From a virus (taxonomy: Duplodnaviria; Heunggongvirae; Uroviricota; Caudoviricetes), in IMG/VR virus record IMGVR_UViG_2671180724_000020: DNA of 20,469 nucleotides. One strand, 5' to 3'. Numbering within the stretch: position 1 is the stretch's first letter; every line of letters starts with the position of its first letter. Positions 75 through 16,799 of this stretch are shown here, piece after piece. The translations under genes and the position numbers were made by a program. Below the pieces are notes generated by a model, which worked only from the letters and a program-made list of their open reading frames with translations, was not told the DNA's origin and did no database searches.

Positions 75-1361
75 TTACCCAGCTTTCTTATGGGGCATAC
101 ATGGGACACTTTCAGATAGTCTTTTGTTAAGGAGTTCTATCTGTTCGTGATTGTTGTCTTTCATCCATGCTCCGTAAACATTGAATACCATTTGTGCGTT
201 TGTGTGGCCCATCTGGCTTGCGATAAAACTAGGATTAGCTCCAGCGGCAAGTGACCAGCATGCATAAGTATGCCTGGATTGGTACGATTTTCTGTGTCTC
301 AGACCTGCGCGTTTTAAGATACTTGTCCATGACTCCCTGATGGAGTCAACCTTATAGTGCGGTCCGGAAAACTGCCGCTGTTTTATTACCTGAGGACTAA
401 AAACAAAAGTGCATTTATGCACAGTACTTCTCCCATATTCCCTCTGCTTTACCTCTACAGAATGTTGCTTTCCAAGCATGGTCATTTCCGCCTGACTTTT
501 AAGAGCATCAATAGCTGGTTGAACCAGATGAATTGTCCTTCCGGTGCCAGCATCGGTTTTTGGTGGAGTGAATTCGCCAAGTTTTGTATAATTCCTACGG
601 ATGGTTATAGTCCTTGCTTTAAGATCTATATCTTCCCATGCCAGCGATACCAGCTCCCCGTGACGAATACCCGTGTATACAGCGAGAATCCACAGGTTTT
701 TTGTTTGTTGATGACGGCAAGCCTCAATAAAACGAATAAATTCGTCACGGGTGAGAGGATCTGGTTTTACCTTGGACTTTTTTAAGGGTGCCAGACCGTT
801 AAATGGGTTTCCTGAGGTATAACCATTATCTGTTGCAAATTGAAACATTCCAGCTATGGTTGTCATATAGTAGTTTACTGTGACCACTGAGCGCCCTTTT
901 ATGGAAGAAATCTTTCCATTAGAAAGCTTTTGGTAACCGGTCAACAAATCTCTCCTTGCGAAAAGTAAATCCTCTTTTGTTATGGATGAAACCAGTTTTT
1001 TCTCACCCAACATAGGCAACATGTTTTTAATTACTGACTGGTAACGATTAAGTGCATTCGCACAAATCTCAATTTTCTTAAGGTCCAACCATTTTTCCGA
1101 AAGTGCCTTAACGGTTATCTCTCTTTTTCCCAGACCAAAGTGTTTCAGGTTAGGGGAATTAGGGAACTGCGCGGCGTAGTCGAAACTCCCCATTCTGATT
1201 GCAAAACAAACGGAAGTGCGAAGTTCACCAGCGATCTTCCGGTTTTTGGCTGTGTCAGGAACACCGAGGTTTTCTCTGACACGTTTGCCATTATAGTGAA
1301 ACCATATACGGAGTGATCCTCCATGGTTTTCAACGCCTGTCGGGTATGATGCGTTACTCAT
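75..1361 (-). CDS. int: Phage tyrosine integrase (site-specific recombinase)
   Basis: 428-aa ORF at the edge of the prophage. The C-terminal region has tyrosine-recombinase signatures (...HELVSLAWEDI..., ...SRHTYACWSLAAGANPSFIASQMGHTNAQMVFNVYGAWM with the catalytic Tyr in VYGAW). GGGAGG lies upstream of the ATG at 1361. An excisionase-like gene sits immediately upstream. Confidence 0.9.
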   Translation of the reverse strand: MSNASYPTGVENHGGSLRIWFHYNGKRVRENLGVPDTAKNRKIAGELRTSVCFAIRMGSFDYAAQFPNSPNLKHFGLGKREITVKALSEKWLDLKKIEICANALNRYQSVIKNMLPMLGEKKLVSSITKEDLLFARRDLLTGYQKLSNGKISSIKGRSVVTVNYYMTTIAGMFQFATDNGYTSGNPFNGLAPLKKSKVKPDPLTRDEFIRFIEACRHQQTKNLWILAVYTGIRHGELVSLAWEDIDLKARTITIRRNYTKLGEFTPPKTDAGTGRTIHLVQPAIDALKSQAEMTMLGKQHSVEVKQREYGRSTVHKCTFVFSPQVIKQRQFSGPHYKVDSIRESWTSILKRAGLRHRKSYQSRHTYACWSLAAGANPSFIASQMGHTNAQMVFNVYGAWMKDNNHEQIELLNKRLSESVPCMPHKKAG

Positions 1362-1394
1362 TAAACCTCCCAGACGTCCAGGAGCATTAACAGG

Positions 1395-1649
1395 TTAACC
1401 GGAACTTGCATTTTTGGCACCTGGTTGTTTCTGGTTTTCGATCCATCGCATAATTTCTTCGATGTTGTACAGGCATTCACTGTAGTGCCCCGGATCACCT
1501 TCTACAGCGTAATGGCGGTATTCTTTTCCCTGCATCCATGACTTTCTTCTTGCCCGCTCAATGGTGCCAGGCTTTAGCCCTGTTGATGCAATGAGGACTC
1601 TCTCCGTACACCATTTGCTGGGGGTTATCTGATAGATGATTGTCTGCAT
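1395..1649 (-). CDS. xis: Excisionase-like protein (Xis, DUF1233-like)
   Basis: 84-aa ORF directly upstream of int on the same strand, with GAGGT 5 nt before the ATG. The sequence (IYQITPSKWCTE...GTIERARRKSWMQGKEYRH) resembles the enterobacterial prophage excisionase family as I recall it; position also supports the call. Confidence 0.6.
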   Translation of the reverse strand: MQTIIYQITPSKWCTERVLIASTGLKPGTIERARRKSWMQGKEYRHYAVEGDPGHYSECLYNIEEIMRWIENQKQPGAKNASSG

Positions 1650-1667
1650 GCCAACCTCATAAAATTT

Positions 1668-1802
1668 TCATCCACGGCAGTGGCACCACACTTCAAACAT
1701 TCGCTTCACAACTTCACGACAGTAGAAGCCGTCAACATCTCGCGTCAGGTCATAGCGATTGCCGTAACGCTGGTGGACCCATCGTTCAAATGCTTTATTC
1801 AT
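1668..1802 (-). CDS. Small hypothetical protein (44 aa, Cys/His-rich C-terminus), absent from the ORF track
   Basis: My own translation of the minus strand gives MNKAFERWVHQRYGNRYDLTRDVDGFYCREVVKRMFEVWCHCRG. A strong RBS AAGGAAG lies 7 nt upstream of the ATG, and the ORF fits exactly between the stop of the upstream gene (1806) and the xis start (1649). Confidence 0.4.
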   Translation of the reverse strand: MNKAFERWVHQRYGNRYDLTRDVDGFYCREVVKRMFEVWCHCRG

Positions 1803-1805
1803 TCT

Positions 1806-2048
1806 TTACTTCCTTTTTATGGCTCGTAATTTTTTCAGGTGCTTTTCCTGCTCAGTGTCCGCGAGAATTTTGCGGTACTCCTGGTGGTCAATATGTTCGA
1901 ACAGGCAGTTTAACTCACCAATGCGTACCCGCCCGGATCGTCCGTCCATCCGTCGAAAGAACACTGAGCGCTCAGTGATGCGAGTAATCACCACGGGGTA
2001 TCCAGCTCTGTCCGTGTATATCTGACCGCGTTGAATCAAAGCGAACAT
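1806..2048 (-). CDS. Hypothetical small phage protein (80 aa from the ATG; the track ORF begins at an upstream TTG)
   Basis: ORF in the leftward operon. The first ATG (2048) is preceded by GGGGAT. No family confidently recognised. Confidence 0.5.
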   Translation of the reverse strand: MFALIQRGQIYTDRAGYPVVITRITERSVFFRRMDGRSGRVRIGELNCLFEHIDHQEYRKILADTEQEKHLKKLRAIKRK

Positions 2049-2132
2049 GTGGTTATCCCCATCGACAAATCGAGAACACAACAAACGCTGCTGCGAATAC
2101 CACCCCCAGAGTTACGATTGCATCAGGCCAGC

Positions 2133-2876
2133 TCATTGATTCACCTCCTGCCTGTCGTCCGGCATTCGCTCACTACAGCTTATCCAACCATCCGGAGTTA
2201 CCGGAACTTGTGGAATGGCTGTCTGCTCTCGAACGTCATTAGGCGCTATAGGTTCTGCTGCCAACTGACTGGCATATTTGTTAATGGTAACGATAAGCTC
2301 TTGCTCAGCCTCATCCAGACAATCACCGATACCTCGCCTGTCACCGTCAAAATCATCGAAATCGGCACGAATCCTGGCAACCTTCAGGATTGCGGACAAC
2401 ACCTCACTAGGAATTGCCGGATAGTTGGTTGACGTTTCCGCGATTTCCCGAAAATTATTGGTTGACGAATTCTTGTTTTCCCGAAAGTTTCCGGACTGAA
2501 GCATGGCGGCGCGGCAGGCGTTCCATATTTCGGCAGCAATATCGCGCTCGCTATCGGTTAATTTGTACGTGGAAACATAGCCAGAGAGCATTTCTACGTT
2601 TTCCGGAGTTGCTTCTTCCGGCACTACCGGCGCTGGCGGGGCGATGCGTCCAAGCAACTTATTTACCTCTTTCGCCATCGCGTCATATTTATCTAAATGG
2701 CGATTAGCTTCTAAGCAGACTCGGCGCATCTGATCTGAGTTAACTCGTTTAACTGGATCTGCTTCCAGCGATGCCAGCGCAATCCGTGCCAGTTCCATTT
2801 GTTCACCACGGGTAAGCCCGTTTTCAAGCGGATTTTTAATGAACAATTCAATACGTTCTTTGGTAATAGTGGTCAT
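2133..2876 (-). CDS. Hypothetical phage protein, paralog A1 (247 aa)
   Basis: Strong RBS AAGGAG 7 nt upstream of the ATG at 2876. Shares an N-terminal motif (MTTITKERIELFI...LARIALASLEA) and a near-identical ~143-bp internal segment with the ORF at 3152-3559. Confidence 0.75.
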   Translation of the reverse strand: MTTITKERIELFIKNPLENGLTRGEQMELARIALASLEADPVKRVNSDQMRRVCLEANRHLDKYDAMAKEVNKLLGRIAPPAPVVPEEATPENVEMLSGYVSTYKLTDSERDIAAEIWNACRAAMLQSGNFRENKNSSTNNFREIAETSTNYPAIPSEVLSAILKVARIRADFDDFDGDRRGIGDCLDEAEQELIVTINKYASQLAAEPIAPNDVREQTAIPQVPVTPDGWISCSERMPDDRQEVNQ

Positions 2877-2886
2877 GTGTTACTCC

Positions 2887-3150
2887 TTAACCCGCAGTGC
2901 TTTCAACTGATGAGGGGAACAAAATCTTTTCATCAAACCCTGCATTCATATCATGAACAGCAACACACCAATCCATCGACGAACGATTATCAAGAGCCTC
3001 CATGATTTCATCCATGCGGCGCAGGTCATACAGGTAAATGCTTTTATCGCCAATGGTGTAAAAACCAATTTTTTTCGGTGATGGGCAGCGATCAAGAACG
3101 TCCTGTAATTCGTTCAACCATGCCCGTTCTTTTTTTGTTAAAGTTGCCAT
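2887..3150 (-). CDS. Hypothetical small phage protein (87 aa from the ATG at 3150)
   Basis: RBS GGAAAGGAGAGTGAT immediately before the ATG. The start region is identical over 19 nt to that of the gene at 3556-4071. Tightly packed between paralogs A1 and A2. Confidence 0.65.
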   Translation of the reverse strand: MATLTKKERAWLNELQDVLDRCPSPKKIGFYTIGDKSIYLYDLRRMDEIMEALDNRSSMDWCVAVHDMNAGFDEKILFPSSVESTAG

Positions 3151-3151
3151 A

Positions 3152-3559
3152 TCACTCTCCTTTCCCATGAAGCATAGCGGCGCGGCAGGCGTTCCATATT
3201 TCGGCAGCAATATCGCGCTCGCTATCGGTTAATTTGTACGTGGAAACATAGCCAGAGAGCATTTCTACGTTTTCCGGAGTTGCTTCTTCCGGCACTATCG
3301 GCGCTGGAGGGGCGGCAAATAGATATCCGCCAAAGTCAGGAAGCTCTCCAATGGCCTGTACGAACTTTTGTTTGCCTACGTCAACTCCTAATGGGTAATG
3401 AGCTATAATCTTTGCCACCGGCTCTGCTTCCAGCGATACCAGTGCAATTCGTGCCAGTTCTTCCGCTTCTTCTGCTGGCAGTACAACGTTGCTACCCGGT
3501 CCGTATGTTTCGCGCCACTGCTTGATTGTCAGCAGTCGCCCTTTGGTAATAGTGATCAT
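3152..3559 (-). CDS. Hypothetical phage protein, paralog A2 (135 aa)
   Basis: RBS AAGGAA; its ATG overlaps the stop of the upstream gene (ATGA). Shares the segment APPAP(V/I)VPEEATPENVEMLSGYVSTYKLTDSERDIAAEIWNACRAAML with paralog A1. Confidence 0.75.
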   Translation of the reverse strand: MITITKGRLLTIKQWRETYGPGSNVVLPAEEAEELARIALVSLEAEPVAKIIAHYPLGVDVGKQKFVQAIGELPDFGGYLFAAPPAPIVPEEATPENVEMLSGYVSTYKLTDSERDIAAEIWNACRAAMLHGKGE

Positions 3560-4071
3560 GCCGCGTTTCCTTCTTTCTTATTAACAATCACACCGTCATA
3601 TATTTCATTAAGGTGCCCTCTCAACTCCATGCGCCTTAATGCAGATAACATGTAATCGCATTCAACCTGCTTATTCCCAGTAAATGGCTTATCGTCAGGA
3701 TTACCCCAACAGCAATTACCCCTGGGCCATCCATGTACTTTCCGTACTCTTCCGTTAACAACGTGAAGTAATCCCCAGCCGGGAGGTAAATCCTCAACTG
3801 AAATAATTTCCGGCTCACTAATAAAGAATCGCCAGTCGCCCATGCCAAGTGAGGGATTTTTACGGAAACGCTTTTTTCTATCTGCCAACAAGTCAGCACG
3901 AGAACACTTCGCCTCTATCAGGCATGATGCTGAATTTCTGAATCCCATAGCATCTGGCTGTTCTCCGGTACTGGTTACAGCAACAAAGCGGTCATGAAAG
4001 CAAACCTTGAACCCGTTGCGCTTAAGGAACTTGTACGCAATCTGACAGAGTTCGCGGTGTGTTAACGCCAT
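3556..4071 (-). CDS. Putative PD-(D/E)XK-fold nuclease-like protein (MmcB-like)
   Basis: 171-aa ORF with strong RBS AAAGGAGAG. Contains a D...(I/L)EAK-type motif (FHDRFVAVTS...ASCLIEAKCSRADL) typical of restriction-endonuclease-fold proteins. The family assignment is from memory. Confidence 0.5.
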   Translation of the reverse strand: MALTHRELCQIAYKFLKRNGFKVCFHDRFVAVTSTGEQPDAMGFRNSASCLIEAKCSRADLLADRKKRFRKNPSLGMGDWRFFISEPEIISVEDLPPGWGLLHVVNGRVRKVHGWPRGNCCWGNPDDKPFTGNKQVECDYMLSALRRMELRGHLNEIYDGVIVNKKEGNAA

Positions 4072-4072
4072 A

Positions 4073-4858
4073 TCACTCTCCTTTGATGCGAATGCCAGCG
4101 GCGCGGATTGCAGCGATGACTTCAGAAACTTTGTATGCCATTACCGTTTGGTAATCATCGTGAAAATCTGTTCGATGAAGCATGCTGCTACGTTCCGGGA
4201 GCGATATTTCCCGAGCATCCAGTTCCTTAACGCGTTCCTCCAGTTCGTAGACCCTGCATTGTTCTCTATCATCAATCAGATATAACCCAAGACATTCGCT
4301 TTCTACCCAACCGCCAAAATCATGATCGTAACGCTCACATGAAAACTCACCGTCACCGTCCTTTGTTGGAATGGTGTAACTATCTAATGGGCCACCATAT
4401 GTCGGCACATTCCCCAATGTTGGATGCTCAATCCACATGAAAAATGCACGTCCGGTTATTGGGCAAATATCTGGCCGCCATTGGTTACGAACAGCCTTGG
4501 TTTCGGATAATTCTTCAGCGTGTTGTTTTACTTCCTCAAGCTCAACTCTCAGCTTCCCTACCGTTAGCGCAATATCCTCGTTCTCCTGGTCGCGGCGTTT
4601 GATGTATTGCTGGTTCCTTTCCCGTTCATCCAGCAACGCCTGCACTACTTCAGGGTTGAAAGCTGCGATATAACGCGCGTTATTCTCTGCGTTTTCCTGT
4701 CCATCAAAGCCGGTCCATTTGATAACGTCTTCACATCGTTTATCACCGGGTGTATGCACCGCATATGTACCAGTACCCGACGAAATAAATGCGACCCATT
4801 CGCCCTGCGTGGCCTGTTTTGCTATCTCACGCAGTGCCTGATAGTCAATTTCGCTCAC
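4073..4858 (-). CDS. Ead/Ea22-like family protein
   Basis: 261-aa ORF with an N-terminus MSEIDYQALREIAKQATQGEW... characteristic of Ea22-like proteins of lambdoid prophages. GTG start preceded by AAAGGAG. Location between xis and the immunity region matches lambda ea22. Confidence 0.7.
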   Translation of the reverse strand: MSEIDYQALREIAKQATQGEWVAFISSGTGTYAVHTPGDKRCEDVIKWTGFDGQENAENNARYIAAFNPEVVQALLDERERNQQYIKRRDQENEDIALTVGKLRVELEEVKQHAEELSETKAVRNQWRPDICPITGRAFFMWIEHPTLGNVPTYGGPLDSYTIPTKDGDGEFSCERYDHDFGGWVESECLGLYLIDDREQCRVYELEERVKELDAREISLPERSSMLHRTDFHDDYQTVMAYKVSEVIAAIRAAGIRIKGE

Positions 4859-5159
4859 TGGTTGTCTCCTTTGCTGGGCCTTCTAACTTCTGAGTGGTTA
4901 TATCAAACTCAAACAACTTAACCACGTCATCAAACAGGACATAATCGCCATCAGAATCTTCAGTCATGTCAGCGCCACAATCCTGACCGCACGAGTCGCA
5001 ACCATCCATATCAAGCTCGTATCGCTTCAGGTTTGCGATATTTGATAAATTCAGCGCCAGTACAGCCAGGTCATAAACCTCTTCGGCAGTGACATCGCTG
5101 TTCAGTCCCATTTCATGGCGATATATGATTTTTTCTACTCGTTGTTTTGTGATCGTCAT
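4845..5159 (-). CDS. Hypothetical phage protein (104 aa) sharing the MTITK N-terminal motif
   Basis: Internal ATG at 5159 gives MTITKQRVEKIIY..., resembling the N-termini of the ORFs at 2876 and 3559. Acidic Cys-containing C-terminal half. Confidence 0.6.
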   Translation of the reverse strand: MTITKQRVEKIIYRHEMGLNSDVTAEEVYDLAVLALNLSNIANLKRYELDMDGCDSCGQDCGADMTEDSDGDYVLFDDVVKLFEFDITTQKLEGPAKETTSERN

Positions 5160-8179: not shown

Positions 8180-8869
8180 CTAACCAAATCTGTTTATGTT
8201 GAATGGTACTGATGAGATCACTTTAGACTGGATATAAAGCAGAGCTAACCCCTCTTTTTCGATGCTCCATGGTTGATAATTGGGGTTATCAGATAACACC
8301 ATGATTTTGCTTCCAATTTTTTGAAGCCTTTTCACGTAGCATTCTCCATCAAAACAAAATGCATAAATACCATCGCCATCAAAATAAGTTACTGTCTTAT
8401 CAAGAAAAAGAAGGTCGCCAGGTGAGATTGTGGGAGCCATACTGTCTCCTCTGGCGTTACCTATTTCTATATTTTTGAATGCCCGATTTCCAACAAGACG
8501 TCGGGCATATTCAGGATCAAGTTCTATTGAGCGCACTACATCTATCAAGTCACCACGGACATGAGTTCCATCACCGCAACTAAACTCAACATCAAGGACA
8601 TTAAATACGACGCTATCTGTTCTTGTCTGGTGTTTCTCTTGCGAAGAAAAGGTTGGTGAGGAGTCTTCACCTAAGAACCAGGATTGTGGATAACCGCTAA
8701 TCTCTGATAAATGCGCGAGCTTATCACTCCGTGGAAATGTTTTTCCTGTTGTCCAGTACTGCACTGATTGCGCACTCACACCTAACTTGCGGGCCAGTTG
8801 AGCCTGAGTCCATCCTTTTGCTTTCAGCATCGCGGCTATTCGATTTTCCGTGTTTTTGACGTTCTTCAT
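8180..8869 (-). CDS. cI: CI-type prophage repressor (N-terminal HTH, C-terminal S24 LexA-like autopeptidase)
   Basis: The N-terminus has an HTH (GWTQAQLARKLGVSAQSVQYW). The C-terminus has the S24 motifs GDSM (ARGDSMAPTISPGDLLF) and a downstream Lys (YVKRL). Divergent from the cro-like gene across an operator-bearing intergenic region. Confidence 0.9.
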   Translation of the reverse strand: MKNVKNTENRIAAMLKAKGWTQAQLARKLGVSAQSVQYWTTGKTFPRSDKLAHLSEISGYPQSWFLGEDSSPTFSSQEKHQTRTDSVVFNVLDVEFSCGDGTHVRGDLIDVVRSIELDPEYARRLVGNRAFKNIEIGNARGDSMAPTISPGDLLFLDKTVTYFDGDGIYAFCFDGECYVKRLQKIGSKIMVLSDNPNYQPWSIEKEGLALLYIQSKVISSVPFNINRFG

Positions 8870-8875
8870 GACCAA

Positions 8876-10466: not shown

Positions 10467-10874
10467 AAAAAAGCCGGGAGTAACCCGGCTCACTCAACAT
10501 CAATAACGGGGAGCTGTTTCGCATAAAACGGCTCCGAAACATCCAAGAACAGTTCTAAAGATATCAGCAGCTATATGATCATTTCAAGACCAAATATTGA
10601 TTCTGCAATTTCGGGACGTTACACTGTCTCCGCACCTTATAAAGCGGGTGCCGGGGGTCGCAGCCCGGAATTGTCAACGGCGATATATGACGCGCCAGCG
10701 TCTTTTTTATCGTCCGCGCTCACGCACGCCAGAATTATGGTGGGCTGGGCAGGGGAGCCGAAAGGCTCGCCGGTCTCCGTTGACGCCGGTACTGCGAACC
10801 CTGTTCAGTCTGCCACCAGTGAGTTTCGCAGCTCCGGTGGTGGAAGTTTTCCACAGTCAACGGAGGCTGCCATC

Positions 10875-11237
10875 ATGGCTACTGTCCCAACTTCCCCATA
10901 CCTGAAAATTGAAGTTGTCAACGGCAAGGCCGTTATTTTCTCCCTGCATGTTGCCTGCCACTTTAAGCGAATGCACCAGAACATCGTTGACAAAATCGAG
11001 TATCTGAACTGCTCACGCGAGTTTTTTACCTGCAATTTCATACCGGGTACTTATCACATCTACGGTGACTCCCTGCGTGGTTATTACATCACTCTTGATG
11101 GCCTGATGATGCTTCAGCTTGGGTTAAGTCTGCGCACAATGCGGTACTACGAGAGCTGCATTGAGGCATTCCATGAAGCTGAAACCAGCCTGAATCATAC
11201 AGCTTTCCGCTGTAATCAATGGGAGGTGCGCCCATGA
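10875..11237 (+). CDS. Rha-family-like phage regulatory protein (120 aa)
   Basis: ATG at 10875 preceded by ACGGAGG. The motif AVIFSLHVACHFKRMHQNIVDKIEYL fits the Rha pattern (V.TSL.VAE.FGKRH.NVLRDI). The upstream 300 nt of the track ORF looks non-coding. Confidence 0.5.
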   Translation: MATVPTSPYLKIEVVNGKAVIFSLHVACHFKRMHQNIVDKIEYLNCSREFFTCNFIPGTYHIYGDSLRGYYITLDGLMMLQLGLSLRTMRYYESCIEAFHEAETSLNHTAFRCNQWEVRP

Positions 11238-15949: not shown

Positions 15950-15966
15950 TTTTGTGGAGAAAGTTG

Positions 15967-16329
15967 ATGCGTGATATTCAAATGGTTCTGGATCGTTGGG
16001 GAGCATGGGCGGCGAGTGATAGTTCAGGAGTAGACTATTCTCCTATAGCTGCTGGGTTTAAAGGGCTTCTTCCCTATACAAGCAAAACACGTCAGGCTTG
16101 TTCAGATAGTGATGCATTAATTATTGAAGGTTGTCTTGCTCTTCTTAAAAAGCGAAAACCGTACGAGCATTCTTTGATTGTGGCCCATTACCTGTATGGC
16201 ATCTCGAAAAGAAAGCTTGCAAGAGCTCGCAAAAAAGATGAGAAATTGATACGTATAGAGATACAGATGGCTGAAGGGTTTATTGATGGATGCCTTTCAA
16301 TGCTGGATGTTAAACTTGAAATGGAGTAG
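15967..16329 (+). CDS. Antitermination protein Q (small Q family, as in DLP12 QuuD / phage 21-type)
   Basis: Start MRDIQMVLDRWGAWAA..., preceded by GGAG. Size of about 120 aa and position before a moron/late region match small Q antiterminators. Confidence 0.7.
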   Translation: MRDIQMVLDRWGAWAASDSSGVDYSPIAAGFKGLLPYTSKTRQACSDSDALIIEGCLALLKKRKPYEHSLIVAHYLYGISKRKLARARKKDEKLIRIEIQMAEGFIDGCLSMLDVKLEME

Positions 16330-16330
16330 A

Positions 16331-16356
16331 AAAAAGGGCATTTCTGCCCTTTTTAA
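16331..16356. terminator. Bidirectional rho-independent terminator between Q and the convergent cassette
   Basis: AAAAAAGGGCA, loop TTTC, TGCCCTTTTT: a GC stem flanked by an A-run on one side and a T-run on the other, so it can terminate both the plus-strand Q transcript and the minus-strand cassette transcript. Confidence 0.6.
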
Positions 16357-16796
16357 ATGTGGGGGAGTATCCAGTTTACTTTTCTCCATGTAAAGGCAAA
16401 AGTTATTACTGAAATGATAAGAAGAGATAACGATTCGATAATTAAAATAAATTCTATTTTTTCTCCATGTAACAATGTCTTTTCATTGGCAAACATTGCT
16501 ATCAAAGCAATAACGCATGCCGTAATTAAAGATGCACCTGCGGTTAATAGATTTACAATAATAACTTGAAGTATGTTGTTGTTTTTTAATGCTTTTATTA
16601 TTCCATTTGAGTTTTCGCTAGCAGCACTAAAAATTGATATTGTGGCTAAAATAAAACCAAATAAAATACCGGATACAGTTGAAATAACCCCGGAGGCTGT
16701 AAGTATGTCAGCATGCCCCATCTGAGGGATATACCTCAGTAGGAACAAGGTGCAAAAAACACTTACAATCAGGTTTCTTAAGTATTTCAATAACAT
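16353..16796 (-). CDS. Four-helix integral membrane protein (147 aa), putative RexB-like effector
   Basis: Four hydrophobic segments of about 20 aa each. AT-rich codon usage. Start 3 nt after the stop of the upstream 313-aa gene. Local similarity to lambda RexB as I recall it (LFLLRYIPQ versus LFRHYIPG). Confidence 0.6.
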   Translation of the reverse strand: MLLKYLRNLIVSVFCTLFLLRYIPQMGHADILTASGVISTVSGILFGFILATISIFSAASENSNGIIKALKNNNILQVIIVNLLTAGASLITACVIALIAMFANEKTLLHGEKIEFILIIESLSLLIISVITFAFTWRKVNWILPHI

Positions 16797-16799
16797 ATC

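Follow-up and report, generated by a model that had tools for sequence, protein, structure and literature searches.

The Eaa/DUF551 family (Pfam PF04448; "Eaa protein" or "DUF551 domain-containing protein" in NCBI annotation) is very common in E. coli, Shiga-toxin phages included, and its domain also occurs in E. coli CPS-53 YfdS. We found no functional literature on the family, whose function is given as unknown (PMC4776307, PMC10834534). A second parallel is Ea22 of phage lambda with its variants in Stx phages (PF13935), for which a pro-lysogenic effect has been reported. Ea22 is a mosaic and DUF551 a portable domain, and one Stx-phage Ea22 variant ends in DUF551 (PMC10834534). As for the boundaries between such modules, short conserved sequences have been proposed as lambdoid recombination sites (Susskind & Botstein 1978 and Clark 2001, both as summarized in PMC3029335), and most mosaic boundaries carry no conserved sequence (PMC3029335).

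Here we describe two members of the Eaa/DUF551 family, orf247 and orf135, in a 20,469-nucleotide stretch of DNA (the window hereafter; IMG/VR record IMGVR_UViG_2671180724_000020, Caudoviricetes) that belongs to a lambda-like prophage of E. coli. Near-identical proteins bear the family names, among them a 247-aa "Eaa protein" (P0001) with 98% identity, but the family-defining domain is reduced to 16 of 68 profile positions in orf247 and is absent from orf135. The genes lie in the same exo-xis/early-left region as Ea22 and share its multi-domain mosaic design; unlike in Ea22, the Ead_Ea22 domain is not matched by Pfam in orf247, orf135 or orf104. Phage P7 (P1-like) matches window positions 2198-4633 with 97.7% identity over 43% of a 3.6-kb query. 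The corresponding P7 genes, upf88.3, upf89.0 and upf89.5, all annotated as of unknown function, keep the gene order of the window: an Ead-like gene comes first, a 516-nt gene second and, at the family position and under the match, a long one of 432 aa. upf89.0 has the length of orf171 and falls under the 97.7%-identical match as well. P7 differs in carrying one long gene where the window has two short ones split by orf87, and in being a plasmid prophage rather than a lambdoid one.

A shared cassette in two early genes

A self-repeat search of the window recovered one outstanding direct repeat of 147 nt, with copies spaced by 671 nt and identical except for three mismatches (98% identity; Table 1). 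Two mismatches are synonymous (GCC/GCT at 2505/3176 and CCG/CCT at 2637/3308) and the remaining one exchanges Val for Ile (GTA/ATA at 2627/3298). Both copies are read on the minus strand as the same 48-aa segment, APPAP(V/I)VPEEATPENVEMLSGYVSTYKLTDSERDIAAEIWNACRAAML, one in orf247 and the other in orf135. The runner-up direct repeats in the window reach at most 44 nt and at most 89% identity, and a chance origin of the 147-nt repeat is thus excluded. The first-pass annotation had reported segments 2498-2640 and 3168-3310 with three to four mismatches and about 47 shared residues, which is essentially correct apart from a register error of one base in the first segment; pairwise alignment upholds the similarity, the copies differing at 3 of 147 positions. 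The same two genes share a second, weaker repeat of 44 nt (89% identity), which encodes ELARIAL(A/V)SLEA(D/E)PV.

Table 1. Positions of the genes, repeats and joints in the window
Feature	Position	Strand	Basis
orf247, Eaa/DUF551-family protein without DUF551 core	2133..2876	-	Pfam, homologues
DUF551 remnant WISCSERMPDDRQEVNQ* in orf247	2133..2186	-	L025 full allele vs truncated allele
Internal 33-nt tandem duplication in orf247, NFRENKNSSTN / NFREIAETSTN	2425..2489	-	Repeat search
Repeat copy 1 (C1 with joints APPAPVVPEE ... WNACRAAML, within orf247)	2497..2643	-	Repeat search, alignment, translation
Joint j1 of orf247, ELARIALASLEADPV (44-nt repeat, 89% vs 3417-3460)	2752..2795	-	Repeat search
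orf87, between the paralogs, phrog_1714	2887..3150	-	PHROGs
18-nt linker AAAGGAGAGTGATATGGC at orf135/orf87 junction (...KGE*, one base, ATG GC)	3146..3163	-	Repeat search, sequence
orf135, short-form family member	3152..3559	-	Translation, homologues
Repeat copy 2 (within orf135; differs at 3176, 3298, 3308)	3168..3314	-	Repeat search, alignment, translation
Joint j1 of orf135, ELARIALVSLEAEPV	3417..3460	-	Repeat search
orf171, phrog_9263/631	3556..4071	-	PHROGs
Identical 18-nt linker at Ea22-like/orf171 junction	4067..4084	-	Repeat search, sequence
Ead/Ea22-like protein, 261 aa	4073..4858	-	Pfam PF13935, E = 7.7e-36
orf104, third MTITK-type gene, phrog_3126; family-like in first 36-47 residues only	4845..5159	-	PHROGs, hhalign

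The 147-bp repeat is one C cassette (C1) plus its two flanking joints, and it is common to both genes because both belong to a large phage family of interchangeable cassettes. orf247 and orf135 are Eaa/DUF551 paralogs, accessory early genes of lambdoid and P1/P7-like phages: each opens with an MTITK cassette and, next to it, the ELARIALASLEA-PV joint, and in each the APPAPVVPEE and WNACRAAML joints flank a C cassette. In proteins of the family an N-terminal "MTITK" cassette comes first, then a middle one and a C cassette; further cassettes are optional, and DUF551, a beta domain, stands at the C-terminus. The cassettes are short and would be mostly helical, and they are separated by joints conserved in DNA, namely ELARIALASLEAEPV, APPAPVVPEE, WNACRAAML, VTPDGWISCSERMP and HWMPLPEPP.

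In orf247 the N-terminal and middle cassettes are each followed by a joint; C1 comes next, then a third joint, an 11-aa tandem and a D cassette, and the stub WISCSERMPDDRQEVNQ* closes the protein. The Pfam DUF551 profile aligns to this protein at positions 1-16 of 68 only, and its 23.8 bits (cut-off 22) come from the stub alone, so that orf247 lacks the roughly 68-residue C-terminal domain that membership entails. Relatives of 291-308 aa, 97-100% identical to orf247, run on into the full DUF551 domain, and to judge from the comparison of alleles, about 50 codons have apparently been lost in frame from inside the gene, between two CAG triplets, to leave the remnant. The truncated ending is also found behind other cassettes (P0178, P0185; 33 loci). 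orf135 is shorter: its N-terminal cassette (MITITKGRLL...) and middle cassette (AKIIAHYPLG...) precede C1, it ends in HGKGE*, and it has no match to Pfam DUF551. Its final "...CRAAMLHGKGE*" is a short ending common in the family, and its long relatives P0121 and P0122, 98% identical, run on into DUF551.

A third gene, orf104, had been grouped with the two paralogs by its MTITK-type start. The shared start is real for all three (MTTITKERI in orf247, MITITKGRL in orf135, MTITKQRV in orf104), but the resemblance of orf104 is the weaker one. All three match phrog_3323, with E = 3.4e-15 for orf247, 1.2e-16 for orf135 and 2.4e-4 for orf104, and hhalign aligns orf104 to the family with 48% probability (E = 1.8e-4, 44% identity over 36 columns). 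These alignments give moderate support to homology between orf104 and the N-terminus of orf247 and orf135. The APPAPVVPEE and WNACRAAML joints were not found in orf104, and no family motifs were seen in any further ORF of the window.

Cassette combinations and their joints

The cassette grammar is evident in the family, which counts roughly 8000 proteins. When the best database hits were parsed by plain motif matching, 166 of the 240 listed homologues could be resolved into 10 N-terminal, 4 middle and 6 C types, which occur in 31 combinations. At neighboring cassette positions all four pairings of two alternatives are present, which indicates recombination between the positions. In IMG/VR, C1 follows at least eight different upstream contexts and is itself followed by both short and long endings. 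The N-terminus is promiscuous as well: a search with its 50 aa against 1.84 billion cluster representatives (clusters made at 50% identity) returned 549 clusters at E ≤ 0.001, and the best 150 of these are 82-100% identical over the N-terminus and have at least 42 different continuations, 40 with DUF551 and 5 with a dATP/dGTP pyrophosphohydrolase domain. Conservation of the joints extends to the DNA; for WNACRAAML, 0-1 mismatches per 27 nt were found over four unrelated C cassettes, three of which are represented here by one or two copies each. The first-pass view of a modular small-protein family shaped by recombination is borne out, and the genes do lie in the early-left region, in an operon read leftward that is flanked by xis and the repressor gene.

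Within this operon the stops and starts of adjoining genes overlap or adjoin (the start of orf135 overlaps the stop of orf171 in ATGA), and this tight packing is consistent with expression as a single operon. Two gene junctions carry the identical 18-nt linker, and the Ea22-like protein, which ends in IRAAGIRIKGE* followed by the linker, resembles in this respect the short ending of orf135. Among the loci compared, the 15-nt core of the linker, GGAGAGTGATATGGC, connects upstream gene ends of at least five kinds with downstream gene starts of at least four, in 16 combinations. The 18-bp linker (...KGE*-ATG) is the equivalent, between whole genes, of the joints between cassettes.

Homologous recombination at the joints, which we infer as the mechanism, would reassort cassettes, whether the partners are prophages resident in one host or family members in tandem, with the host RecA or a phage recombinase as the candidate enzyme, and recombination in a misaligned register would fuse or remove genes. 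No sign of a diversity-generating retroelement or a shufflon was seen: the repeats are all direct, and Pfam scans of the larger ORFs showed no reverse transcriptase and no invertase, with a tyrosine integrase at 75-1361 as the sole recombinase found. We consider the cassette-shuffling account as a whole, including the separate arrival of the two C1 copies, to be probable.

Natural recombinants in related prophages

Recombinant loci are on record. Three related prophages (L035, L064 and L073), whose integrase/mlrA backbone is 99.9% identical to that of the window, carry one hybrid gene with the front of orf135 and an orf247-like back, the crossover lying at the 5' edge of the repeat, and all three lack orf87. 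The check for deletion variants in related prophages, proposed with the suggestion that the repeats could mediate loss of the intervening gene, yielded something close to the expected product, a hybrid without orf87; in L035 a different D cassette and a substitution of its own rule out a one-step deletion of the window arrangement.

Crossovers are seen at other joints as well. L001 and P0083 are recombinant at the 44-nt joint j1, and orf87 is absent from L001 too. L011 has a different short family member at the orf135 position, with its breakpoint at window position 3196, and in L005 and L006 the end of the Ea22-like gene is joined directly to orf87 through the linker, orf171 and orf135 being absent. 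These rearrangements may be deletions or insertions and may have run in either direction.

As in lambdoid modular evolution at large, conserved short boundary DNA accompanies varied combinations of the flanking modules, here at the 18-bp linker and at the intragenic joints; the difference is that most joints here are intragenic, between protein cassettes. At every joint examined natural recombinants are known and a conserved sequence can be identified, the latter in contrast to most of the mosaic boundaries considered in PMC3029335. As an instance of lambdoid mosaicism, a known phenomenon, the locus is clear and unusually well resolved, if ordinary.

Origin of the two copies

The C1 segment is widespread: of 5426 complete E. 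coli genomes, 314 contain its 147 bp, at 95-100% identity and in a variety of gene settings. The core of the cassette is nearly invariant, and variation sits mostly at its edges. The two-copy layout was matched by an 861-bp probe in 95 complete genomes, an upper bound because single-copy loci can match both repeat copies of the query.

A source of the shared segment within this very prophage, through recent recombination or duplication as first proposed, would mean tandem duplication or gene conversion between older paralogs. Such an event would account for copies that are 98% identical, direct in orientation and merely 671 bp apart, in genes that are otherwise 89% identical or unalignable. 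However, the two-copy layout, again with 98% identical copies, recurs in independent assemblies (L004, L007-L010, L023) and also beside a diverged integrase region in L062. Copy 2 resides on a 1.8-kb block (2835-4645), within which orf171, orf135 and orf87 move jointly; it is 99.8% identical in L013-L018, unrelated Rac-like prophages that hold it in the early-right region and lack copy 1. Conversely, the copy 1 block is common to L005, L011 and L020, all without orf135. Judged by their surroundings, then, the two C1 copies came to the prophage on separate blocks and so are not a local duplication. Since the cassette is 95-100% identical throughout the population, a difference of 2% between the copies is within normal diversity and their 98% identity is unexceptional. 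The block and the spread over 314 of 5426 genomes thus oppose a local origin, which is largely refuted and which we regard as very unlikely. It is still less credible, to the point of being extremely unlikely, that the 147 bp were kept for an RNA or DNA site within them, be it a small RNA, a promoter, a terminator or a recombination site, and not for what they encode. The nearly invariant nucleotides of the core are what one would expect of such a site, but the conserved stretch is the same as that of a protein cassette with its joints, no Rfam match was found in the region, the repeat folds no more stably than shuffled sequences on either strand (z = +0.33, +0.29), and promoter-like and terminator-like sites are not enriched. 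With folding stability, Rfam and site scans all null, an RNA or cis-acting element in the repeat was rejected.

Function and selection

Sequence searches with Pfam, NCBIfam, PADLOC and the PDB revealed no homology to any characterized effector, NCBIfam giving no match and the PDB none of significance. PADLOC, whose models represent defense rather than anti-defense systems, matched none of orf247, orf135, orf104, orf87, orf171, the Ea22-like protein or the full-length relative P0010, and the PHROGs families that were matched all lack an assigned function. For orf135, the AlphaFold model has a mean pLDDT of 61.7 and a pTM of 0.29, and for P0010 a mean pLDDT of 48.7. Foldseek against the PDB returned no match at E ≤ 0.001, and the DUF551 part showed a weak likeness, in a low-confidence model, to small beta barrels of the Tudor/Sm-like kind. 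Because the structure models are of low confidence, the picture of helical beads is tentative. It is possible, and we suggest it with reserve, that the products are expressed, non-essential adaptor-type early proteins with an influence on host or phage physiology such as has been reported for the neighboring Ea22.

Whether the genes are functional at all deserves consideration, for the NCBI annotation pipeline (PGAP) calls the equivalents of orf135 and other family fragments partial pseudogenes. orf247 and orf135 could then be non-functional remnants of DUF551 genes, and the repeat would reflect nothing but shared ancestry of pseudogene fragments. Both do lack the DUF551 domain of their closest long relatives, PGAP marks their equivalents as incomplete, and the polymorphism of C1 (5 synonymous and 11 non-synonymous sites, in a sample picked by an exact 30-mer probe) shows no sign of strong purifying selection. 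Debris of this kind is nevertheless unlikely: both frames are intact among tightly packed neighbors, the exact proteins are indexed in 190 (orf247) and 338 (orf135) blocks of a public assembly collection, the truncated DUF551 ending is reused behind different cassettes, and many cassette combinations share the short "...GKGE*" ending, one short form (P0231) being present on at least 1000 contigs. The short forms are widespread architectures, yet annotation pipelines mark many members as partial pseudogenes.

At the other extreme, the cassettes might be specificity modules of an anti-defense, exclusion or host-takeover family, in which diversifying selection favors shuffling and the joints are retained as substrates for recombination. 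A huge combinatorial diversity behind a near-invariant N-terminus, the fusion of that N-terminus to dATP/dGTP pyrophosphohydrolase in five cluster representatives and the conservation of the joints in DNA all fit this proposal. So does the placement of the genes in early operons, the typical home of accessory and counter-defense genes. Yet the searches found no homology to a characterized effector, and ordinary lambdoid mosaicism accounts for the pattern without selection for shuffling, which leaves the proposal improbable in our judgment. A bolder form, on which we would place little weight, sees the MTITK/Eaa proteins as hypervariable "beads-on-a-string" effectors: the near-invariant N-terminus would dock to a common partner, while changing specificities against host defense or rival phages would come from the cassettes that are shuffled and from the C-terminal domains (DUF551 alleles, dATP/dGTP pyrophosphohydrolase), and the joints would be selected as recombination substrates. 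If true, the family would be a phage counterpart of cassette-based antigenic variation or of polymorphic toxins. For the cassette-shuffling account that we prefer, no such selection is needed. Since the family is common in E. coli and yet of unknown function, the cassette map is a rational start for functional tests.

Outside E. coli, a C1 30-mer was found among species-representative genomes on just two short contigs of metagenome-assembled genomes, assigned to Segatella copri and Collinsella, which are probably mis-binned E. coli phage DNA. On a technical note, a near-identical 147-bp repeat at 671-bp spacing could in principle mislead the assembly of such prophages from short reads.

Genomic context of the repeat genes

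The window represents the left half of a lambdoid prophage, as judged by gene calls, Pfam matches and relatives, and in related assemblies the integrase gene adjoins mlrA. The gene order places the repeat genes in the leftward early operon, and every gene in the repeat region lies on the minus strand. This region is the counterpart of the lambda exo-xis region, which in Stx phages is described as highly mosaic, genes being duplicated there in full or in part (PMC8614690). One NCBI assembly contig is 100% identical to the window sequence over 4.2 kb, and public databases already contain the gene sequences.

Genes, repeats and RNAs of the window
Feature	Coordinates	Strand	Remarks
Integrase	75-1361		first in order
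Excisionase	1395-1649		after integrase
44-aa ORF, then DUF4222 gene			between excisionase and orf247
27-codon ORF	2053-2136	minus	hydrophobic peptide MSWPDAIVTLGVVFAAAFVVFSICRWG; ATG overlaps orf247 stop (ATGA)
orf247	2133-2876	minus	after DUF4222 gene
33-nt imperfect tandem duplication	2425-2489	minus	inside orf247; 78% identity; NFRENKNSSTN / NFREIAETSTN
147-nt direct repeat	2497-2643, 3168-3314		98% identity, spacing 671
44-nt repeat	2752-2795, 3417-3460		89% identity; product ELARIAL(A/V)SLEA(D/E)PV
Block shared with Rac-like prophages	2835-4645		first 14 codons of orf247, orf87, orf135, orf171, most of Ea22-like gene
orf87			after orf247
18-bp linker	3146-3163, 4067-4084		AAAGGAGAGTGATATGGC; flanks orf171 and orf135
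orf135	3152-3559	minus	after orf87
orf171			after orf135
Ead/Ea22-like gene	4073-4858		after orf171
orf104	4845-5159		after Ead/Ea22-like gene
DUF4752 gene, further leftward genes			after orf104
CI-type repressor	8183-8875		after leftward genes
Cro/YdaS-like gene		rightward	after CI-type repressor
Rha and Ash genes; DnaC-like and DnaB replication genes; DUF968			in that order, between Cro/YdaS-like gene and Q
isrK Hfq-binding RNA	10632-10708	plus	Rfam, 58.7 bits
C4 antisense RNA	10733-10820	plus	Rfam, 78.8 bits
Antiterminator Q	15952-16326		after DUF968
147-aa ORF (no Pfam match); 313-aa DUF6731 protein	within 16353-17741	minus	
tRNA-Met (CAT)	19472-19547	plus	phage-borne
tRNA-Arg (TCT)	19628-19704	plus	phage-borne

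Cassette architecture of the family

The near-identical segment that the first-pass annotation had reported in two genes is real. In a whole-window repeat search, the largest repeat family is a 147-nt direct repeat placed in orf247 and orf135, and alignment of the copies shows three mismatches, of which two are synonymous (2505/3176 and 2637/3308) and one exchanges Val and Ile (2627/3298); the product is APPAP(V/I)VPEEATPENVEMLSGYVSTYKLTDSERDIAAEIWNACRAAML. A weaker 44-nt repeat is found in the same two genes. The tandem duplication within orf247 lies in the linker after the shared cassette. The MTITK-type N-terminus described for three genes was also recovered (MTTITKERI in orf247, MITITKGRL in orf135 and MTITKQRV in orf104), with a modest relation of orf104 to the family (phrog_3323, E = 2.4e-4; hhalign probability 48%, E = 1.8e-4, 36 columns), and a motif scan of the window ORFs found neither this motif nor the repeat motifs in any further ORF.

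Aligned relatives consist of conserved joints between blocks with unrelated alternatives. An N-terminal cassette (e.g., MITITKGRLLTIKQWRETYGPGSNVVLPAEEAE, MTTITKERIELFIKNPLENGLTRGEQM, MTTITKERLQWLANISGRDD...) is followed by the first joint, ELARIALASLEAEPV, a middle cassette (e.g., AKIIAHYPLG..., KRVNSDQMRRV..., GFRCRRNDN..., AVMFCISGQN...), the joint APPAPVVPEE, a C cassette and, directly after it, the joint WNACRAAML. The C cassettes are C1 (ATPENVEML...DIAAEI), which is the one in the window repeat, MYWQDAPVE..., KPMPNPLSMY..., ANVAQAIENL... and KSPREYIRGW.... After WNACRAAML, the proteins either end as 'xGKGE*' or run through more cassettes, VTPDGWISCSERMP, a DUF551 allele and HWMPLPEPPQEV. 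Of the 240 listed matches, 166 could be resolved by simple motif parsing. They show 31 combinations built from 10 types of N-terminal, 4 of middle and 6 of C cassette, as expected of the modular family proposed earlier, and at neighboring positions every one of the four possible pairings of two alternatives was seen.

The first 50 residues of orf135 matched 549 clusters at E <= 0.001 when searched with HMMER against 1.84 billion cluster representatives. The best 150 of these are 82-100% identical over this stretch, despite library clustering at 50% identity, and continue past the first joint in at least 42 different ways; DUF551 is present in 40 of the 150, a dATP/dGTP pyrophosphohydrolase domain (PF04447) in 5, and most have no Pfam domain. 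The fusion of the near-invariant MTITK module to PF04447 could be a clue to the module's role or merely one more recombination product.

Endings of orf247 and orf135

Only the very C-terminus of orf247 matches Pfam DUF551, over profile positions 1-16 of 68. Among the 7928 relatives found in 5.8 billion proteins, the closest are 291-308 aa long and bear the names 'DUF551 domain-containing protein' or 'Eaa protein'. Their identity to orf247 is 97-100% as far as '...VTPDGWISCSERMP', beyond which they carry differing alleles of complete DUF551, in place of which orf247 ends as 'RMPDDRQEVNQ*'. Comparison with the full allele of a related locus (L025) shows that the domain core was lost in frame between two CAG triplets, and the shortened ending is also found behind other cassettes (P0178, P0185). 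The terminus of orf135 is 'AAMLHGKGE*', whereas its long relatives P0121 and P0122 (98% identical) run on as 'AAMLQSGNFRENK...VTPDGWISCSDRMP' and then DUF551. The short GKGE* ending is common: it follows a variety of cassette combinations, and at least 1000 contigs carry one particular protein of this short form. Thus, although both are relatives of named Eaa/DUF551 proteins, orf247 and orf135 lack the domain that defines the family. Nor are they Ead/Ea22 proteins, although the Ea22-like neighbor gene has an ending that resembles that of orf135. A short-form member of 137 aa (P0182) is called 'Valyl-tRNA synthetase' in one public source, an evident annotation error.

An ORF start similar to that of the 27-codon ORF (MIWPEAFAITGVA...) lies 3' of the full-length DUF551 gene in L025, so the 27-codon ORF may encode a small membrane peptide that is conserved but overlooked by gene callers.

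Natural variants at the joints

Natural variants differ from one another at the joints. Three loci (L035, L064, L073) are 99.9% identical to the window from the integrase to DUF4222 and 99.5% identical at the orf171/orf135 front, and carry a single 252-aa gene, without orf87. In the nucleotide alignment, this gene matches orf135 at 100% as far as the repeat's 5' edge and is of orf247 type at all three diagnostic sites; its tail is orf247-like, with a different D cassette (one of those beyond WNACRAAML) and the same shortened DUF551 ending as orf247. The switch at the repeat edge bears out the proposal that the repeats are recombinogenic. These loci come close to the variant with a deletion between the repeats that was to be sought in related prophages; as the D cassette differs, they cannot have come from the window sequence in a single step.

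In a closed genome with a prophage at the same mlrA site (L001) and in protein P0083, the 44-nt joint is where the orf135 N-terminal cassette gives way to the middle cassette of orf247. Another locus (L011), without orf171, is 99.9% identical to window 1300-3196; similarity stops within the WNACRAAML joint, and upstream of it the orf135 position is occupied by another short family member with different N-terminal, middle and C cassettes and the same HGKGE* ending. In two further loci (L005, L006), an Ea22-like ending, '...IRIKGE*', is fused straight to orf87 via the 18-bp linker. In the fetched loci, this linker's 15-nt core joins at least five kinds of gene end to at least four kinds of gene start in 16 pairings. 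The WNACRAAML joint differs by 0-1 of 27 nt across four unrelated C cassettes, three of these known from 1-2 copies each. The family's evolutionary behavior agrees with the classical boundary-sequence model of lambdoid modular evolution (Susskind and Botstein 1978; Clark et al. 2001; as cited in PMC3029335). Two points are less usual: most of the joints fall within genes, separating protein cassettes, and each joint examined has a recognizable conserved sequence, which most mosaic boundaries are noted to lack (PMC3029335).

Origin and spread of the two C1 copies

A recent local duplication, as first proposed, does not account for the two copies. The orf135 copy lies on a block 99.8% identical to one in the early-right (nin-like) region of Rac-like prophages without orf247 (L013-L018), where it is flanked by the replication genes on one side and by hokD/DUF968/RusA on the other. 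One accessory block therefore belongs to the leftward early operon in one type of phage and to the rightward early operon in another. The orf247 side is common to prophages without orf135 (L005, L011, L020). The two C1 copies were thus brought together by the joining of blocks.

The exact C1 30-mer is present in 78 IMG/VR stretches, with at least eight kinds of upstream context and both short and long downstream endings; among these, two copies at 671-bp spacing occur only in L023, L062 and the window's own contig. IMG/VR contig IMGVR_UViG_2703719389_000013 carries both copies of the cassette probe. C1 was found in 314 of 5426 complete E. coli genomes (363 places), at 95-100% identity throughout, in genes annotated as DUF551, Eaa or hypothetical. 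Across 99 copies from fetched loci, the core is almost invariant and variation falls at the edges, i.e., the joints. The near-invariant core is better explained by recent spread of one C1 allele among phages than by something that happened in this genome. Among species-representative genomes, the exact 30-mer was seen only in short contigs of MAGs classified as Segatella copri and Collinsella; these contigs most likely come from E. coli phages and were placed in the wrong bins of gut metagenomes.

The family is also found in P1/P7-type plasmid prophages. Ea22-like, orf171-length and long-family-type genes follow one another in the same order in phage P7 (AF503408.1; upf88.3, upf89.0 and upf89.5) and in P1-like plasmids of ~95 kb (L003); cassettes are therefore common to lambdoid and P1-type phages.

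Possible function

Sequence searches of the proteins against Pfam (the DUF551 stub aside), NCBIfam, PADLOC and PDB were negative or uninformative, and all PHROGs matches were to families of unknown function. The orf135 structure model (mean pLDDT 61.7, pTM 0.29) has helices at 6-19, 29-43 and 112-131 at ~70-80 pLDDT and a middle cassette below 50; in the full-length relative P0010, the DUF551 beta domain alone reaches ~70-74. Foldseek found no PDB match at E <= 0.001, and DUF551 weakly resembles Tudor/Sm-like folds. Ea22 favors lysogeny, DUF551 is a portable domain, and loss of yfdS, the gene of a DUF551 protein, sensitizes cells to H2O2 (PMC10834534; PMC4776307).

Tentatively, orf247 and orf135 might be expressed, dispensable early proteins serving as binding adaptors. 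Indirect signs of expression are the intact frames, the overlapping or adjoining stop and start codons (ATGA; TGA-T-ATG) and the wide occurrence of the exact proteins. That they are instead decayed remnants seems unlikely, and is the reading favored by the PGAP labels 'partial pseudogene' and by C1 having no clear signal of purifying selection. An anti-defense role, raised in the first-pass annotation, is a speculative possibility. A cis-acting RNA or DNA role of the repeat is disfavored.

Other features of the window

The stretch 10632-10820, with isrK and C4 at the start of an ORF with Ash and Rha domains (10575-11237), is a P1/P7-type immunity RNA module within a lambdoid prophage. The two reverse-oriented genes at 16353-17741 are flanked by antiterminator Q and a DNA methylase gene; this placement suggests inserted accessory genes (a moron), possibly defense-related, and the pair had no PADLOC match. 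The two tRNA genes follow the N6/N4 DNA methylase gene (18373-19431) and precede a TerB-domain ORF.
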